From the NCBI RefSeq assembly GCF_022846255.1, contig NZ_AP025682.1: a stretch of DNA of 64,000 nt; one strand, written 5' to 3'. A model generated the notes under the pieces. The model did no database searches. It was not told where the DNA came from and saw nothing but the letters and a program-made list of their open reading frames with translations. A program made the translations under genes and the position numbers. Below are positions 13,056 through 50,227 of the stretch, one piece after another. Within the stretch, counting starts at the first letter, position 1. Every line of letters starts with the position of its first letter. The stretch is from Escherichia coli (GTDB taxonomy: Bacteria; Pseudomonadota; Gammaproteobacteria; Enterobacterales; Enterobacteriaceae).

Positions 13056-13066
13056 GATTTATGATG

Positions 13067-13093
13067 CCTCCCACGAAAGTGGGAGGTTTTTTT
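13067..13093. terminator. Bidirectional intrinsic terminator between azoR and ydbC
   Basis: cctcccac-gaaa-gtgggagg hairpin followed by T7. Confidence 0.65.
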
Positions 13094-13095
13094 AT

Positions 13096-13962
13096 TTAAC
13101 CCGCCTTTTGCGCAATACTGTCCAGCGTTGCCAGCACGTCATCCGTTAGCACTAATTCATCGGACGCCATATTCTCCCGCAGATGCCCCACCGAAGAGGT
13201 GCCAGGAATCAACAAAATATTCGGTGAACGTTGTAACAGCCACGCCAGCGCCACCTGCATTGGTGTTGCACCCAGGCTCGTAGCAACATCGGAAAGCGTG
13301 GAGGATTGCAGCGGCGTAAAGCCCCCGAGCGGGAAGAACGGCACGTAGGCAATGCCATCACGAGCCAAAGCATCAATCATTGCGTCATCAGCACGGTGGG
13401 CAATGTTGTATTCGTTCTGCACGCAGACGATTTCGGCAATCTTTCGCGCCTCTGCAACCTGCGTCGGTGTGACGTTACTCAGGCCAATATGTTTTACCAG
13501 GCCTTGTTGTTGCATCTCCGCCAGCACTGTCAGGCTGGCCTCAATCGATCCTTCCGCTGGGCCATGACCATCCCCCATCATAACGCGCAGGTTAACCACA
13601 TCCAGTACGTCCAGGCCGAGATTACGTAGATTATCGTGTACCGCTTTTTGCAGCTCTGCCGGAGAAAATGCGGGTAACCAGGAAGCGTCCTCTCCACGCC
13701 GCGCACCAATTTTAGTGACAATTGTCAGGTCGTCAGAGTAAGGATAAAGCGCTTCGCGGATAATCTGATTGGTGACGTGCGGACCATAAAAGTCGCTGGT
13801 ATCAATATGATTGACGCCCAATGCCAGCGCCTCGCGCAGCACGGTTATAGCGACGTGGCGATCTCTTGGGGGGCCAAAAACCCCAGAACCAGCCAGTTGC
13901 ATCGCGCCATAACCAAGACGGTTAACGGATTTTGTACCGAGAGTAAATGTGTTGCTGCTCAT
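13096..13962 (-). CDS. ydbC: Aldo-keto reductase family oxidoreductase
   Basis: AKR fold (NHIDTSDFYG, catalytic Tyr/Lys context); position next to azoR matches ydbC. Confidence 0.8.
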   Translation of the reverse strand: MSSNTFTLGTKSVNRLGYGAMQLAGSGVFGPPRDRHVAITVLREALALGVNHIDTSDFYGPHVTNQIIREALYPYSDDLTIVTKIGARRGEDASWLPAFSPAELQKAVHDNLRNLGLDVLDVVNLRVMMGDGHGPAEGSIEASLTVLAEMQQQGLVKHIGLSNVTPTQVAEARKIAEIVCVQNEYNIAHRADDAMIDALARDGIAYVPFFPLGGFTPLQSSTLSDVATSLGATPMQVALAWLLQRSPNILLIPGTSSVGHLRENMASDELVLTDDVLATLDSIAQKAG

Positions 13963-14109
13963 CGCACCCTGCCCTGTAATAAAACGGATTAAGAAAAATC
14001 AGTATAGGAATGAATAGAGATAAATAATGCGAGGGTGTAAACAAGATTACTGGATGAGTAGCTCTAATATCCTGAAAGACACCAAAACAAGACGCGTCAA
14101 GTACCGCAT

Positions 14110-14149
14110 CCGGCAATAAAAAACCGCAACCTGTATCAGCGTTGCGGTT
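14110..14149 (-). terminator. Intrinsic terminator downstream of the paaY-like gene
   Basis: aaccgcaac...gttgcggtt hairpin followed on the minus strand by a T-run. Confidence 0.5.
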
Positions 14150-14162
14150 AAGGTATCACATG

Positions 14163-14783
14163 CTAAAAATTAGAACGTTCAGCATCTGGACGTGACTGTT
14201 TCGGTCGCAGATTCTCATCAAATACCAGACGCTGCCTGCCAGGTTCAACTTCCCGCAATGGCTCGACTTGATGCAACGTCTGCTTACAACGTGTCACCAG
14301 CACCTGATACTCATGCGTGCCCTGCTTTTTCCATGCCAGCTCCTGCTCACTAAGTTCACGAATCGCTTTTGCCGGGCTGCTGACAATCAGATAATTAGCA
14401 GGCATTTCTGCTTTGGCTTTCACAAATGCGGATGCGCCAACAATACTGTTCTCACCAATCACCGCACCGTCCATCACTACCGCGTTCATTCCCACTAACG
14501 CATTGCGGCGGATAATGCAGCCGTGAAGGATAGCGCTATGACCAATATGCCCATCTTCTTCAACGACAGTATCCTGCCCGGGAAAGCCGGGCATAACGCA
14601 ATTATCCTGAATGTTCGCGCCATCTTTCACCACGATACGACTAAAATCACCTCGCAGGCTGGCATTTGGTCCAACGTAAACGCCCTTGCCGAGAATAACA
14701 TCGCCGATCAATACCGCTGTCGGATGAACAAAACTCTCTTCTGTTACAATCGGAGTCAGACCGTCTATCTGATAAATTGGCAT
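14163..14783 (-). CDS. paaY: Hexapeptide-repeat (gamma-carbonic-anhydrase-like) protein, PaaY/CaiE/YrdA family
   Basis: Left-handed beta-helix hexapeptide repeats; N-terminus [11 protein letters not shown] resembles PaaY as recalled; genomic position corresponds to the end of the paa cluster, which is otherwise absent. Confidence 0.55.
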
Positions 14784-14889
14784 AACACCTCCTGTTCAAT
14801 ATTCAAACCGCCAAAACGTTGAAAATACAGGCTACCCGGCGAAGGCTGCTCACCGACCGAGGTTTCACCTTTTTCACTAACGAACGCTA

Positions 14890-15124
14890 CAGCAGCAGGC
14901 GCTACGCGCTGATAAAATTTGCCGATAAAGGTTTGGTGGTCGCGCAATATATTCGTAACCGTCGTCTCGATTTTTGTGCAGATGCGATTCGCCATGCCGC
15001 AGATGATGAAAAACTGGCAGGCATTGGCTTTCATTGGGGATTTTCCGACCAGAGTCATTTTTCAACGGTATTTAAACAACGCTTTGGGATGACGCCAGGC
15101 GAGAATCGGCGTAAATTCCGCTAA
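14890..15124 (+). pseudogene. C-terminal remnant of an AraC-family regulator (probably feaR 3' end)
   Basis: Only the last ~75 codons look like an AraC HTH (GFSDQSHFSTVFKQRFGMTPGENRR); no N-terminal domain; position between ydbL and paaY is where feaR lies in K-12. Confidence 0.45.
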
Positions 15125-15162
15125 CTAATTCGCGTTGCATGTACAGCAACGCGAATTAGTTA
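15122..15162. repeat. 17-bp perfect inverted repeat with 7-nt loop overlapping the stop codon of the AraC remnant
   Basis: taactaattcgcgttgc-atgtaca-gcaacgcgaattagtta read directly; no flanking U-run, so it may be a protein-binding palindrome or a factor-dependent terminator. Confidence 0.5.
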
Positions 15163-15295
15163 AAACAGATATTTGACTATGCATTTTTCAGGGCAAAAGA
15201 CAATTTGGCAGGAATTTTTGAATAATCATCTTATTTCCGGAAAATAGATTAATCGCCTTCTCCTGTAGCGTTATCCCGATATTGCGGTTTTGCTA

Positions 15296-15625
15296 TTAAA
15301 ATTTTCGCACCCATTTACCGTTTATCCCTTGTACATATTCCCCGGGTTTGGCCCGTTCTACGAGCTTTTGCCCGGCGAGTTTCGCGATATCATCCACCGA
15401 CACATTATTTTGCTTTGCCAGTTGTTGATAGCTCGCTTTACGTTCGGCATTGATGTCGGTTACTAATTTCTCAGTTTCAGCATCTGTTTTCAGCGCAACC
15501 AGATAACCATAAAATGTTTCGCCTACCCGCCCCTGAGTTCTGGCTTCATCCAGAGTCAATGCCATTACATTGCTGCTTACCAAGCCAACAAGAAATGCAC
15601 AAAGAAGTAATGTTCTTTTCATCAT
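15296..15625 (-). CDS. ydbL: DUF1318 periplasmic protein
   Basis: Start at MMKRTLLLCAFLVGLVSSNVMA (signal peptide) after a gagg RBS; gives ~108 aa, matching ydbL. Confidence 0.8.
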   Translation of the reverse strand: MMKRTLLLCAFLVGLVSSNVMALTLDEARTQGRVGETFYGYLVALKTDAETEKLVTDINAERKASYQQLAKQNNVSVDDIAKLAGQKLVERAKPGEYVQGINGKWVRKF

Positions 15626-15629
15626 CACC

Positions 15630-15815
15630 TCAAAAAAGATCGCTACGGGTCTCAAGCAGCTCTTCGACATCTTTGTCTGCCTTGATGATGATCTCATGCT
15701 CAATTTTAACGTTCATATTGATAGTGATCGGTTCCTTAGGTGCAGCGACTTCAATGCGAGGCGTACAGCCAACCAGCATAAAAGATGACGTCAACGCAGC
15801 CAGTAAAATTTTCAT
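15630..15815 (-). CDS. ynbE: Small lipoprotein, 61 aa
   Basis: MKILLAALTSSFMLVGC lipobox; 61 aa; translationally coupled between ydbH and ydbL. Confidence 0.8.
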   Translation of the reverse strand: MKILLAALTSSFMLVGCTPRIEVAAPKEPITINMNVKIEHEIIIKADKDVEELLETRSDLF

Positions 15816-18451
15816 TGTTTATCCTCACACTCTTTTCCTTGCGGACAGTCATTTCCCGGTAGACGCGCGTTCTGCTCCAGCCATGCCTGGAGATTATCGC
15901 CAAAGCGTAAACTGCGCCACAGCGTAAAAATATTCTCTTCATGATGGTAATTAATATTTACCGTACCGCTTTTACCATCAACGCGACTGGTACCTGTAAT
16001 ATTGGCCTGCATGGTTAATAAACCGAGATTATCTAAATTAATTTTTGTCGATGAACGGCTAATTTCCATATAGCGCAACCAGTTAATTGCTGAACCCGCG
16101 GTCATATTGTCTTTCACCACCGCATCTGCGGTGTCTTTATCCAGCCGCAAGGTCATCGGCCCGCTATTTGCCAGCCAGCCGTCTTTCACAATCCATTTTT
16201 CGTTGTTTAGCCATAACGGCAATGCACCACTAAATGCCCCGGACATGGCGAATTGTTTCGGATTGACGGCGCTAACCAGTTCGCTGGAGGAAAGATTATT
16301 CAGCCGCAACAGCGCCGGGTCATGTTGCGGCATACGTAATTGTTTCATCAGCACGTTACCGCCTAACACATCGACGCTAACATCAGTCAACAGCAATGGT
16401 TCTTCTTCAGTCCACGGATAACGCCCTTGCAAATCAGCCGTAATATTTTTCGCTGTAACCAGATTAATCACTTCGGCAATTCGCAACGTAACGGGACCGC
16501 GAGTCCCCAGATGCCAGGCTCCATCGGCAAAACGGAAAGGCAGGACAAAATCGACACCGTTAACCTGATTATCTGGCATCCAGGCACTACCGCCTTTCAA
16601 CACGCCGTGCCCTCCCGCGCGGAATCCTTGTTCGGGCGCTGCTGAAAATGCAACCTGAGCATACAGTTCACCATCGCGTAAGTTCATCTTCCAGTCGGGT
16701 GGCACCAACGGCTGGAATACAGTCAGTGATTGTTTAGGCCACCAGGCGTTACCGCGCAGACGAATACCGTCCCAGCGACCATTTACCCGAACCGGGCCAA
16801 TCTCACCAGCATGTAAATCGCCTTTAAAGAGGAAATACGTCGGATCGCGCCCATCGACGCTAAATTTTAAGGTTGATGGCGGTAACACACTGCCGCCAGT
16901 GAACAGCGTTTGCCCGGCGTCCAGTGACAGCGCGCCGCTGAAGGAGGGATGCTGTGCGTCACGTCCCCAGACGACGGGCTTGTCGAGAATTAATCGCGGC
17001 TTTTCTACCGTCATCGTACCGTATTGTAACTGGTCGAAACCGGTGGAGAGATCGGTCAGCGTAATCGTGCTGTCATGCCACTCACCTTTTCCTGCGACAT
17101 CCCAGGTGGCATTCATCGGTGTAAAACTCCCTTTTCCCCAGTAGCGCCACTGCCAGCGGCCAGCGTCAGGGAGAAAATCATTCGCCAGCCCATCCATATG
17201 CAGCACGAAATCGCCCAGTTCATTTTCATGCGCCTGCAAAATGGCCTGCAAACGTCCGTCAACACCACGTTGGGTGACTTTTACACCCGCTAAAGGCCAG
17301 CGGATTTCATCGATGTCCAGCGAATCAATGACTCTTCCCTTTGAACGAAGTAACGCGCCAGGCTCAAAGGTCAGCGTTGGGTCAGACAGACTTCCACTTA
17401 GCTGCGCAGGTAAACGGGCATATAAAATGAGGTCCGCCTGTTTCGCTTCACCGGTCAGCTGCAGAGGCAGCTGGCTGTTATCCATGCTTAATTTTCCTGG
17501 GCCAAAATTTAACACCGCGTTGCCTTTACCCGCTTGCCCCTGGGTCAGCACACTCAGTCGCCCGCTGACCAGAGCGTTCTCGAGCCCTGCCTGCCAGTTG
17601 TCGACTTTAACACCCAGTCGGCCACTCAAAGGAAAACCTGCATACGGCCAGCTCCAGCGACCATCGCTTACGGTCAATTGTTGACGAGTAATTTGCCACG
17701 GCAAATCGAGCAACGGATCGCCGTTATCCCGTGCCAGCACAATCAATTGCCCGCTATTTTCCTGCCAGTCCAGCTCGGCATCCACCAGTGACGGTTCCTG
17801 CGGCAAGTTTAACGTCGCAGTAGCATGACCACTTACCGGAAGTCCATCCGGCACGAGCGGCATAGTAAATTCCCCCACCAGTTTTACCGGCGGCTGATTT
17901 TCAAACGCGGCGACATCCAGTTCGCTGACTGTAAGTTGTTGCCCTTTCAGCTGGCCTTGAAATTTAACTTTTTCGCCCTGATAACGCAGTTGCTGGATAT
18001 CGGAGGTTAATGCGAGAGAGAGTTTTCCCTGCCATTCCTGCCAGGGAGAAAAAATCAGTTTATCGATATTGATCCAGGTGTTAGGCAGCATGGACTGCCA
18101 CTGCGCGAGGGTTTTTGGAGCGGCTGGCGATTGTTCCGCCTGCGGCAATTTCGCCAGACAAGCAGAATCAAGTTCTACCGTGCCGACGTTCAATAACCAG
18201 CGGCTGGGATGTGAAAGGCTGGCGTTGGTGATATGCGCAAGCTGACAATCTCCCACCAGATAACGGAGATCGGGGATGATTAAACCTTTACGCGTAATGC
18301 GTGGGCTTTCATCTAATGCAATACGTGTCCCGAGCGGTAGCCAGATGCCCGCCAGCGTGGGAACCCACAGCCCGAGCGTCATCAGCAGCGTCAACGGCAC
18401 AAGAATAATCAGTAATAACAGCGCGAGAACGGCTTTATATTTACCCAGCAT
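15812..18451 (-). CDS. ydbH: Large AsmA-like membrane-anchored protein, 879 aa
   Basis: 879 aa with N-terminal TM anchor; same length and operon arrangement (ydbH-ynbE-ydbL) as K-12. Confidence 0.9.
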   Translation of the reverse strand: MLGKYKAVLALLLLIILVPLTLLMTLGLWVPTLAGIWLPLGTRIALDESPRITRKGLIIPDLRYLVGDCQLAHITNASLSHPSRWLLNVGTVELDSACLAKLPQAEQSPAAPKTLAQWQSMLPNTWINIDKLIFSPWQEWQGKLSLALTSDIQQLRYQGEKVKFQGQLKGQQLTVSELDVAAFENQPPVKLVGEFTMPLVPDGLPVSGHATATLNLPQEPSLVDAELDWQENSGQLIVLARDNGDPLLDLPWQITRQQLTVSDGRWSWPYAGFPLSGRLGVKVDNWQAGLENALVSGRLSVLTQGQAGKGNAVLNFGPGKLSMDNSQLPLQLTGEAKQADLILYARLPAQLSGSLSDPTLTFEPGALLRSKGRVIDSLDIDEIRWPLAGVKVTQRGVDGRLQAILQAHENELGDFVLHMDGLANDFLPDAGRWQWRYWGKGSFTPMNATWDVAGKGEWHDSTITLTDLSTGFDQLQYGTMTVEKPRLILDKPVVWGRDAQHPSFSGALSLDAGQTLFTGGSVLPPSTLKFSVDGRDPTYFLFKGDLHAGEIGPVRVNGRWDGIRLRGNAWWPKQSLTVFQPLVPPDWKMNLRDGELYAQVAFSAAPEQGFRAGGHGVLKGGSAWMPDNQVNGVDFVLPFRFADGAWHLGTRGPVTLRIAEVINLVTAKNITADLQGRYPWTEEEPLLLTDVSVDVLGGNVLMKQLRMPQHDPALLRLNNLSSSELVSAVNPKQFAMSGAFSGALPLWLNNEKWIVKDGWLANSGPMTLRLDKDTADAVVKDNMTAGSAINWLRYMEISRSSTKINLDNLGLLTMQANITGTSRVDGKSGTVNINYHHEENIFTLWRSLRFGDNLQAWLEQNARLPGNDCPQGKECEDKQ

Positions 18452-18658
18452 GGGTAGTTAATATCCTGATTTAGCGAAAAATTAAGCATTCAATACGGGT
18501 ATTGTGGCATGTTTAACCGTTCAGTTGAAGGTTGCGCCTACACTAAGCATAGTTGTTGATGAATTTTTCAATATCGCCATATCTTTCAATTATATTTGAA
18601 ATTTTGTAAAATATTTTTAGTAGCTTAAATGTGATTCAACATCACTGGAGAAAGTCTT

Positions 18659-19648
18659 ATGAAACTCGCCGTTTATAGCACAAAACAGTACGACAAGAAG
18701 TACCTGCAACAGGTGAACGAGTCCTTTGGCTTTGAGCTGGAATTTTTTGACTTTCTGCTGACGGAAAAAACCGCTAAAACTGCCAATGGCTGCGAAGCGG
18801 TATGTATTTTCGTAAACGATGACGGCAGCCGCCCGGTGCTGGAAGAGCTGAAAAAGCACGGCGTTAAATATATCGCCCTGCGCTGTGCCGGTTTCAATAA
18901 CGTCGACCTTGACGCGGCAAAAGAACTGGGGCTCAAAGTAGTCCGTGTTCCAGCCTATGATCCAGAGGCCGTTGCTGAACACGCCATCGGTATGATGATG
19001 ACGCTGAACCGCCGTATTCACCGCGCGTATCAGCGTACCCGTGACGCTAACTTCTCTCTGGAAGGTCTGACCGGCTTTACTATGTATGGCAAAACGGCAG
19101 GCGTTATCGGTACCGGTAAAATCGGTGTGGCGATGCTGCGCATTCTGAAAGGTTTTGGTATGCGTCTGCTGGCGTTCGATCCATATCCAAGTGCGGCGGC
19201 GCTGGAACTCGGTGTGGAGTATGTCGATCTGCCAACCCTGTTCTCTGAATCAGACGTTATCTCTCTGCACTGCCCGCTGACACCGGAAAACTACCATCTG
19301 TTGAACGAAGCCGCCTTCGATCAGATGAAAAATGGCGTGATGATCGTCAATACCAGTCGCGGTGCATTGATTGATTCTCAGGCGGCAATTGAAGCGCTGA
19401 AAAATCAGAAAATTGGTTCGTTGGGTATGGACGTGTATGAGAACGAACGCGATCTGTTCTTTGAAGATAAATCCAACGACGTGATCCAGGATGACGTATT
19501 CCGTCGCTTGTCTGCCTGCCACAATGTGCTGTTTACCGGGCACCAGGCATTCCTGACAGCAGAAGCTCTGACCAGTATTTCTCAGACTACGCTGCAAAAC
19601 TTAAGCAATCTGGAAAAAGGCGAAACCTGCCCGAACGAACTGGTTTAA
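18659..19648 (+). CDS. ldhA: Fermentative D-lactate dehydrogenase (NAD-dependent), 329 aa
   Basis: D-isomer-specific 2-hydroxyacid dehydrogenase fold (GVIGTGKIGVAM NAD-binding motif); 329 aa. Confidence 0.95.
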   Translation: MKLAVYSTKQYDKKYLQQVNESFGFELEFFDFLLTEKTAKTANGCEAVCIFVNDDGSRPVLEELKKHGVKYIALRCAGFNNVDLDAAKELGLKVVRVPAYDPEAVAEHAIGMMMTLNRRIHRAYQRTRDANFSLEGLTGFTMYGKTAGVIGTGKIGVAMLRILKGFGMRLLAFDPYPSAAALELGVEYVDLPTLFSESDVISLHCPLTPENYHLLNEAAFDQMKNGVMIVNTSRGALIDSQAAIEALKNQKIGSLGMDVYENERDLFFEDKSNDVIQDDVFRRLSACHNVLFTGHQAFLTAEALTSISQTTLQNLSNLEKGETCPNELV

Positions 19649-19665
19649 TCTTCCCGCTCCCCTGC

Positions 19666-19694
19666 ATTCCAGGGGAGCTTATTCAGATAATCCC
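19666..19694 (+). terminator. ldhA intrinsic terminator
   Basis: gctcccctg-cattcc-aggggagc hairpin followed by a T-rich tract. Confidence 0.6.
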
Positions 19695-19758
19695 CAAAGA
19701 CCTTTCATCCTCTATTCTTAAAATAGTCCTGAATCAGAAACAGTAATTGAGAACCACA

Positions 19759-20181
19759 ATGAAGAAAGTAGCCGCGCTTGTTGCGCTAAGCCTGCTGATG
19801 GCGGGATGTGTAAGTAGTGACAAAATTGCTGTAACGCCAGAACAGCTACAGCATCATCGCTTTGTGCTGGAAAGCGTAAACGGTAAGCCCGTGACCAGCG
19901 ATAAAAATCCGCCAGAAATCAGCTTTGGTGAAAAGATGATGATTTCCGGCAGCATGTGTAACCGCTTTAGCGGTGAAGGCAAACTGTCTAATGGTGAACT
20001 GACCGCCAAAGGGCTGGCAATGACCCGTATGATGTGCGCTAACCCGCAGCTTAATGAACTCGATAACACCATTAGCGAAATGCTGAAAGAAGGTGCACAA
20101 GTGGATCTGACCGCGAACCAGTTAACGCTGGCGACCGCGAAACAGACATTAACTTATAAGCTGGCGGATTTAATGAATTAA
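19759..20181 (+). CDS. hslJ: Heat-shock lipoprotein HslJ (META domain), 140 aa
   Basis: Start at MKKVAALVALSLLMAGC (lipobox); 140 aa; downstream of ldhA. Confidence 0.85.
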   Translation: MKKVAALVALSLLMAGCVSSDKIAVTPEQLQHHRFVLESVNGKPVTSDKNPPEISFGEKMMISGSMCNRFSGEGKLSNGELTAKGLAMTRMMCANPQLNELDNTISEMLKEGAQVDLTANQLTLATAKQTLTYKLADLMN

Positions 20182-40249: not shown

Positions 40250-40400
40250 TTCTTCCGCATAACTCACTATCCTTCTGTCATATCATTAAATTTTTCTGAT
40301 TTATTGATCTGACAGAAGGTTCATCACTGTTTCATTCACCAGATATGGGTTAATCTTTTAATTACAAACTGCGTTGACAGTTGTTGTAAGGAGACCCTGT

Positions 40401-50184: not shown

Positions 50185-50189
50185 GTTAA

Positions 50190-50222
50190 TATGCCTGATG
50201 GTGTTGCACCATCAGGCATATT
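50190..50222. terminator. Bidirectional hairpin between tpx and tyrR
   Basis: atatgcctgatggtg-ttgc-accatcaggcatat, a 15-bp perfect stem between convergent genes. Confidence 0.6.
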
Positions 50223-50227
50223 CACGC

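Follow-up and report, generated by a model that had tools for sequence, protein, structure and literature searches.

A deletion allele at the feaRB-tynA-paa locus of a phylogroup-B2-like Escherichia coli chromosome, with a stranded, probably decaying paaY and a pre-existing feaR-ydbL hairpin

The window analysed is a 64,000-nucleotide stretch of contig NZ_AP025682.1 (Escherichia coli, assembly GCF_022846255.1). It corresponds to the K-12 hrpA-ldhA region in reverse orientation. Genes are ordered hrpA (-), azoR (+), pdxI/ydbC (-), an open reading frame at 14163-14783 (-), another at 14819-15124 (+), ydbL/ynbE/ydbH (-), and ldhA (+). Features at and around the locus are:

13096-13962, minus strand: pdxI/ydbC.
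14118-14150, minus strand: canonical intrinsic terminator of paaY, with stem AACCGCAAC/GTTGCGGTT followed by T6 and a fold of -22.4 kcal/mol.
14163-14783, minus strand: paaY, 206 aa, with an intact reading frame.
14180-14194: 15 bp that replace 8.9 kb of K-12 (ynbG and ydbA, with IS2 and IS30), by BLAST against K-12.
14765-14916, minus strand: paaX 3′ remnant, the last 50 codons and stop, by alignment to K-12 paaX.
14917: junction base, A in the window and G in 7 of 7 other genomes examined with the same junction (type A).
14918-15124, plus strand: feaR 3′ remnant, 68 codons and stop, holding the second half of an AraC-type helix-turn-helix.
15001, minus strand: equivalent of the K-12 Rho termination peak, inside the feaR stub and upstream of paaY, placed from the K-12 coordinate through the BLAST map.
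15122-15162: feaR-ydbL intergenic hairpin, with 17-nt arms at 15122-15138 and 15146-15162, 100% complementary, and a 7-nt loop.
15296-15622, minus strand: ydbL, last gene of ydbH-ynbE-ydbL.

Over the next 24 kb, identity to phylogroup-B2 strains, among them APEC O18, is 99.3%, and the best identity to the locus among complete RefSeq E. coli genomes is about 98.5%. By these matches the chromosome is identified as phylogroup-B2-like E. coli. The heterogeneity of the locus, which lies between ydbH-ynbE-ydbL and ynbCD-azoR, has been described before, as have several independent deletions of paa there (PMC4951805), and paa is reported missing from B2 and E strains (PMC5422975).

The protein encoded at 14163-14783 was described as PaaY-like in a preliminary description of the window, and this is borne out. 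With the PaaY equivalog model TIGR02287 (residues 3-195 on model positions 1-192) its score is 364 bits, above the cutoff of 319.6, and it is 95–97% identical to E. coli PaaY proteins. The AraC-type fragment was correctly taken for the 3′ end of feaR. Residues 33–101 of the 101-aa frame at 14819-15124 (+) align to positions 235–303 of 303 in the FeaR model NF007243, and 14918-15124 matches the C-terminus of K-12 FeaR at 99% identity. Its length, given earlier as about 75 codons, is 68 feaR codons plus the stop. Full-length FeaR has an N-terminal AraC_binding_2 domain, two helix-turn-helix motifs, and a score above the model cutoff; the stub scores 118 bits against a cutoff of 199 and is only a fragment, without start codon or promoter. 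The first ~33 codons of the frame are antisense to the paaX stub. That stub, drawn by PGAP as 14765-14917 (153 bp), overlaps the paaY start by 19 nt, matching the native operon. It scores 20.9 bits with TIGR02277 against a cutoff of 264.6, far from a full-length GntR-type PaaX repressor. The frames at 14819-15124 (+) and 14765-15058 (-) are junction chimeras and not genes.

Alignment to K-12, the check first proposed for locating endpoints and microhomology, gave both. By BLAST, window positions 14195-14916 match K-12 1465059-1464338 and positions 14918-19800 match K-12 1446584-1441702. About 17.75 kb (K-12 1,446,586-1,464,337) is therefore absent, close to the ~18 kb from feaRB-tynA-paaZ through paaX reported as missing; the last 50 codons and stop of paaX survive, so that paaX is not wholly lost. 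The segment comprises the 5′ 699 bp of feaR, feaB, tynA, paaZ, paaA-K, and the 5′ 798 bp of paaX. One endpoint lies within feaR and the other within paaX. The truncated ends of the two 3′ stubs abut, and both stubs align collinearly with their parent genes.

The 6-mer AATGTT occurs at both parental breakpoints. The parental sequences, ...GATAAATGTTGATAC and ...CCGAATGTTTGCC, are alike in two intact strains; in K-12 and Z0117EC0062, whose clusters are intact, the sequences at the breakpoints are GCTGATAAATGTTGATAC and ACCGAATGTTTGCCG, each with AATGTT. The junction, GCTGATAAAGTTTGCCG, is identical in 7 other type-A genomes. It reads GATAAA followed by GTTTGCC, one T short. Because the junction is the AATGTT product minus one T, it points to one microhomology-mediated event of illegitimate recombination. 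Such a single event at AATGTT would have removed the ~17.75 kb and left two gene stubs with a complete paaY. The A at 14917 reads as a later point change. The missing T, a departure from a clean microhomology product, is the point against this mechanism.

The type-A junction, defined by a contiguous match over the whole of 13900-15400, was found in 258 of 5,426 complete E. coli genomes (~5%). Since the same junction recurs at this frequency, it is best read as an inherited allele and not as a private event. Its flanks fall into two strongly divergent haplotypes, with differences already 27 nt away on the left and 21 nt away on the right. A single origin, with later recombination reaching as far as the junction, would probably be a better account than recurrent identical deletion.

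A probe of paaY with the paaX stub matched 3,444 genomes at 80% coverage or more, the 258 included, and matched partially in about 567 (~10%); paaY is absent altogether from 1,415 genomes (~26% of complete E. coli). All three partial-paaY genomes sampled carry a second deletion, here type B. In type B (e.g., LS4, CP024717), the 3′ 329 bp of paaY are fused to the 3′ 252 bp of feaR. Its limits are K-12 1,446,630-1,464,720, with the 7-bp microhomology GGATAGC. These features mark type B as an independent deletion event, also common. The feaR endpoints of types A and B are 45 bp apart, and neither deletion reaches the hairpin or the Rho zone, which may be chance.

The absence of ynbG/ydbA was also noted correctly at first, and it was counted as part of the scar, which does not hold. 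The ydbA-less state occurs in C3728, whose paa cluster is intact, and in roughly 30% of evenly sampled genomes. Because it is found with an intact paa cluster, the loss of ynbG/ydbA is best regarded as a separate common polymorphism unrelated to the paa deletion. The ydbD-ynbABCD segment (7.2 kb in K-12) is also absent, between azoR and pdxI. The azoR-pdxI gap is 40 bp, around a bidirectional terminator. Only 7 complete genomes have azoR adjoining pdxI, and in E2348/69 ISEc13 is inserted in the loop of that terminator.

The stranded paaY keeps a strong ribosome-binding site (AGGAGG). The terminator sequence after paaY is unchanged in ydbA-less strains with an intact paa cluster. Among 8 type-A alleles sampled, none has a frameshift or premature stop. 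The stop codon itself is lost across the window's whole clade (TAA>TCA at 14193-14195), which adds 10 aa, and V12I, P14T, G48S, E69G, and G135S are also clade-wide changes found in the window. In sister strains A25 and E2348/69 the start codon of paaY is gone (ATG>AAG), and H65P (CAC>CCC, base 14590) occurs in the window only.

In E. coli numbering, H82 and H87 are kept in the window protein and position 65 is Pro. H65 is presumed to be one of three metal ligands, from 1V3W numbering and the literature on gamma-class carbonic anhydrases. His65 is present in all 16 other E. coli alleles, and the aligned residue is His in 8gpm and 1v3w. The metal of gamma-class carbonic anhydrases is held by three histidines, and the Acinetobacter baumannii PaaY structure 8GPM has a canonical gamma-carbonic-anhydrase site. 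With H65P and the 10-residue read-through tail, the activity of the window PaaY has probably been lost.

Sequence evolution is changed as well. In a small and non-random sample of 8 type-A and 9 intact alleles, dN/dS of paaY is 0.05 among the 9 alleles adjoining full-length paaX and 0.16–0.37 between type-A alleles and their nearest intact allele. Between the window and its sister strains it is 1.2 (A25) and 0.75 (E2348/69). Private codon states in the 8 type-A alleles are 20 nonsynonymous and 6 synonymous, against 9 and 50 for polymorphism in the intact alleles (Fisher p = 7e-8). paaY beside the type-A junction gains amino-acid changes far faster than paaY beside full-length paaX. The stranded gene is best described as being under relaxed selection.

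It was also rightly noted that paaY has lost its operon and upstream regulator. The paaXY operon is transcribed from the Px promoter, which lies upstream of paaX (PMC9493321). The window keeps only 50 codons of paaX, and the deletion took Px along with the other paa genes; the co-transcription with a paa cluster and paaX that is looked for in a PaaY is absent. A promoter scan of the minus strand from ydbL to paaY gave no sigma-70-like site. On that result an internal paaY promoter was rejected; the lone minus-strand site falls within paaY itself. The sole same-strand transcription unit upstream is ydbH-ynbE-ydbL. With Px gone, paaY would be promoterless, and read-through from ydbH-ynbE-ydbL would be ended by Rho within the feaR stub. 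Because the Rho peak lies upstream of the junction and of paaY, ydbL read-through should mostly end before paaY. A Rho stop upstream of paaY agrees with relaxed selection on the gene. paaY is probably a promoterless relic decaying toward a pseudogene. The preliminary description had left its expression and role unclear; as to role, sequence evolution favors relaxed constraint and, probably, a decaying relic.

Two other readings of the deletion and of paaY were weighed. The short arrangement could be ancestral, with the fea/tynA/paa cluster inserted in other strains, as might suit a known region of heterogeneity between core genes. The window keeps truncated, collinear 3′ pieces of paaX and feaR, which only loss yields; deletion here is therefore preferred to insertion elsewhere, and the ancestral-absence model was rejected, its probability being close to nil. 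A second reading has paaY still at work by itself, as a thioesterase or gamma-carbonic anhydrase that is expressed through transcription running on from ydbH-ynbE-ydbL and is retained for a benefit that does not depend on a paa pathway. Its frame is open in 8 of 8 type-A alleles sampled, its ribosome-binding site and intrinsic terminator are kept, and the bifunctional PaaY of A. baumannii influences biofilm formation and tolerance to peroxide. These points are set against an excess of private amino-acid changes (20 to 6, compared with 9 to 50 in intact alleles), sister strains without a start codon, and, in the window, a substituted predicted metal ligand (H65P) and a lost stop. The scanned interval gave no promoter, and a mapped Rho termination region lies upstream; paaY is missing from about 26% of E. 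coli and reduced to a 3′ piece in about 10%. As a qualifier to this case, the type-B deletion truncates paaY. A working paaY is judged highly unlikely, though some residual function may persist, and an inherited deletion that left paaY as a decaying relic is the preferred account.

The 17-bp perfect inverted repeat was correctly reported to overlap the stop codon of the feaR remnant: the first three bases of the hairpin (15122-15162) are the feaR TAA. It is the sole perfect hairpin with arms of at least 14 nt in the window; chance alone would be expected to yield ~3e-5 hairpins as perfect as this one in 64 kb. It folds at -27.7 kcal/mol on the plus strand (z = -5.3) and at -31.7 kcal/mol on the minus strand. 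Its placement within the scar was mistaken. The hairpin is 204 bp from the junction, and K-12 and over 3,000 genomes have it at the same place, beside a feaR that is intact, which answers the question of its conservation there. On these comparisons the palindrome is shown to predate the deletion and to be the normal E. coli feaR-ydbL intergenic hairpin. For the same reasons it was rejected as a cause of the deletion. A REP/BIME or other dispersed repeat was rejected because all five allele probes found one place per genome. A known RNA family was rejected as well, the sole Rfam 15 match being mir-2574, a chance hairpin at 28.6 bits against 90.

Hairpin alleles were counted by exact 50-mer matches with the five probes, which gave one copy per genome in each case:

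Arm position 10 G/C, loop ATGTACT (K-12): 1,402 genomes.
Arm position 10 G/C, top pair C-G changed to T-G: 1,327 genomes.
Arm position 10 C/G (the window's allele): 879 genomes.
Arm position 10 A/T: 129 genomes.
Arm position 10 C/C, a mismatch: 409 genomes.

The G/C alleles together account for about 2,729 genomes. About 4,190 genomes keep the stem, which is imperfect (C/C) in about 10% of carriers; in about 23% of genomes none of the five palindrome probes matched. One stem position occurs as three Watson-Crick pair types and another as a G-U wobble. All 12 of the A/T carriers among those listed (of 129) adjoin feaR stubs. In strain H2 the C/C allele is inverted in place.

Outside E. coli, a degenerate FeaR C-terminal pattern searched against species-representative genomes gave only two unrelated matches. 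FeaR orthologues of 77–82% identity, in Pseudocitrobacter-like genomes, have feaR and ydbL stop codons that abut with zero spacer. A different gene neighbors feaR in Kluyvera, and FeaR matches at 84% and 89% are damaged E. coli copies only. By these comparisons the hairpin is Escherichia-specific, and since the nearest genera have no feaR-ydbL spacer, it is dispensable.

At the RNA level, neither strand has a U-tract after the stem (3′ flanks AAAACAG on the plus strand and GCGGAAT on the minus strand), and the terminator scan does not call the hairpin. A Rho termination region in the ydbL sense peaks at K-12 1446501(+) (Adams et al. 2021, eLife, Supplementary file 2). This peak has p = 1.3e-5 at a Rho score of 4.03, in a map whose 800-nt windows make it coarse. 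The K-12 hairpin (1446340-1446380) lies 134 nt after the ydbL stop, and the Rho peak is 121 nt beyond the hairpin. Coverage upstream and downstream in K-12 is 54 and 14 without bicyclomycin and 87 and 91 with it (Adams et al. 2021). Because coverage is 87 against 91 with Rho inhibited, the hairpin alone does not stop RNA polymerase; Rho, and not the hairpin alone, halts polymerase in the ydbL direction in K-12. No RNA 3′ end for ydbL or feaR near 1446340-1446380 is present in the Adams 2021 Term-seq tables or the TERMITe supplements.

Rho-dependent transcripts with a stable stem-loop, no U-tract, and a rut site immediately downstream have been described (Dar & Sorek 2018). The feaR-ydbL hairpin is likewise a stable stem-loop past a stop codon without a U-tract, and the K-12 literature places Rho termination downstream of it. 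By this analogy, the hairpin is most likely a protective 3′ stem-loop of the ydbH-ynbE-ydbL mRNA. Rho-terminated ydbH-ynbE-ydbL transcripts would be trimmed back to the hairpin and there be shielded from exonucleases. By symmetry, it perhaps protects feaR mRNA too.

Other readings of the palindrome differ in how much they ask of it. As a bidirectional intrinsic, Rho-independent terminator for convergent feaR and ydbL it would be well placed, exactly between the two genes, with a very stable stem whose AT-rich outer part could act as a paired A-tract and U-tract. This reading is unlikely and was rejected, as neither strand has a U-tract, the terminator scan passes it over, and read-through in K-12 is complete when Rho is inhibited. 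A functionless palindrome is a lesser possibility, though a more credible one. Its perfection and paired changes would then stem from intra-palindrome template switching or arm-arm gene conversion, and arm-to-arm switching could yield paired changes without selection. This would suit the common C/C intermediate (409 genomes), the inverted C/C allele in one strain, the restriction of the A/T allele to the side of feaR stubs in the 12 carriers listed of 129, and the lack of the palindrome in many genomes and in those related genera that were examined. It fits less well with a stem kept in about 4,190 genomes and imperfect in only ~10%, with a top pair that went from C-G to U-G and not to a mismatch, and with a position and lack of U-tract that match a known functional class. 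A more ambitious and doubtful proposal is that the feaR stub and the palindrome form a working 3′-end module of the ydbH-ynbE-ydbL phospholipid-transport operon, a protective stem-loop with a Rho loading and termination zone after it. The module would have arisen within Escherichia, since the feaR and ydbL stops abut in the nearest genera. If true, it would explain why two independent deletions have ends no more than 45 bp apart and leave it in place, why pairing is perfect across three base-pair alleles, and why the A/T double change is seen only beside feaR stubs among the carriers listed. The protective 3′ stem-loop remains the preferred reading. The account as a whole, of an inherited microhomology deletion, a relic paaY, and a pre-existing feaR-ydbL hairpin acting as a protective 3′ stem-loop, is held with high confidence.

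The finding is real but ordinary, the deletion allele being annotated elsewhere and the locus known to vary. The strain is unable to use phenylethylamine or phenylacetate via tynA-feaB-paa. For annotation, the 206-aa “PaaY” here is a probable relic and not a sign of a paa pathway. The locus offers a clean natural example of gene decay after operon loss, along with a hairpin, present once per genome, that changes by paired substitutions. What is mildly novel is limited to how this hairpin evolves and to its possible 3′-end role in the ydbH operon.

Among known systems, E2348/69 (O127:H6, NC_011601.1 1592009-1592970, PGAP) is like the window in its junction, stubs, hairpin allele, azoR-pdxI neighborhood, and paaY stop loss, with 98.5–98.7% identity across the locus. 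Its PGAP annotation gives the stubs as “incomplete; partial” PaaX and HTH pseudogenes. Unlike the window, it carries G as its junction base and lacks the start codon of paaY; it also keeps H65, shows A23E, V52E, I90N, and D105V in paaY, and has ISEc13 between azoR and pdxI. The K-12 cluster feaRB-tynA-paaZ-paaABCDEFGHIJK-paaXY (b1384-b1400) is collinear with the window on both flanks: the feaR-side flank holds ydbH-ynbE-ydbL, the hairpin, and the 3′ end of feaR, and the paaX-side flank holds the 3′ end of paaX with paaY. It differs in having the 17.75 kb, ynbG/ydbA, ydbD-ynbABCD, and the G/C hairpin allele with loop ATGTACT. Type B (LS4) has lost the same catabolic island at a short microhomology and kept the hairpin and a feaR stub; unlike the window, its paaY is truncated and adjoins a ydbA-like autotransporter gene, and its endpoints differ. 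The stem-loops of Dar & Sorek share with the hairpin their stability, a place past the stop codon, the lack of a U-tract, and Rho termination just beyond, a class membership read from anatomy alone. A. baumannii PaaY (8GPM/8GPP), a thioesterase and gamma-carbonic anhydrase of the left-handed beta-helix family, is homologous over residues 1–181 (E = 2.5e-67). The window PaaY differs from it in a Pro at the first of three active-site histidines, a 10-residue C-terminal extension, and a setting with no adjoining paa pathway.

A second, independent deletion of the fea/tynA/paa island is found in Escherichia coli LS4 (L004, 3002–3580; K-12, 1446630–1464720). This type-B deletion truncates paaY, retains 252 bp of feaR, and has a 7-bp microhomology (GGATAGC). 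Its feaR endpoint lies merely 45 bp from that of the feaR-to-paaX deletion in the window (type A). paaY is only partly kept in about 570 complete genomes, and all three of those sampled carry type B. The type-A junction is identical within two very different flanking haplotypes (window 14890–14938 compared with loci L003, L008, L009, and L010 from other genomes), which diverge from each other at 27 nt from the junction on the left side and at 21 nt on the right. Either recombination replaced the flanks as far as the junction itself, or this deletion arose more than once.

Two open reading frames span the type-A junction:

14765–15058, minus strand, chimeric ORF of 97 aa
14819–15124, plus strand, chimeric ORF of 101 aa

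Both are a mechanical product of the feaR/paaX fusion. The 97-aa ORF reads through antisense feaR and on into the paaX frame, overlapping the start of paaY; it has no convincing ribosome-binding site. In the closest relatives of the window, E2348/69, A25, and DCE7 (L001, L006, and L007), codon 1 of paaY is changed from ATG to AAG. PGAP nevertheless calls a 204-aa PaaY in these relatives, starting at a downstream ATT codon.

The feaR-ydbL palindrome occurs in an inverted form. In E. coli H2 (locus L013, 151–191), the mismatched C/C allele of the palindrome is present as the form of E. coli M1 (locus L011, 154–194) inverted exactly in place (G/G, with a reversed loop). This looks like a flip via recombination between the palindrome arms. 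An IS1 element lies ~80 bp beyond the H2 palindrome. In Pseudocitrobacter-like genomes with FeaR 77–82% identical, the stop codons of feaR and ydbL are directly adjacent, at a spacing of 0 nt (L024, L025, L026, and L030, ~2400–2410), so the entire 171-bp E. coli spacer, including the hairpin, was gained within the Escherichia lineage. The spacer between ydbL and the hairpin also holds a second near-palindrome, ATCTTATTTCCGGAAAATAGAT, at window 15228–15249, which K-12 largely conserves with two substitutions. Further long hairpins are present at window 40271–40319 and 50185–50225, one with 21-nt arms and 90% complementarity and the other with 19-nt arms and 95%.

The window also differs from K-12 on either side of pdxI. 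Window 14180–14194 has 15 bp where K-12 has 8.9 kb, comprising ynbG and the autotransporter pseudogene ydbA, with IS2 and IS30. The ydbA-less arrangement is common and is found alongside an intact paa cluster too, so ydbA absence is unrelated to the paa deletion. At its 3′ end, pdxI carries a divergent allele over the last ~23 codons, with a product of 288 aa versus 286. Just 40 bp separate the azoR and pdxI stop codons (window 13056–13165), around the following feature:

within 13056–13165, bidirectional terminator, GCCTCCCAC-GAAA-GTGGGAGG followed by T7

azoR adjoins pdxI in only 7 of 5,426 complete genomes. At this position, K-12 carries ydbD-ynbABCD (7.2 kb), which the window lacks, and in E2348/69, ISEc13 sits in the loop of the terminator.
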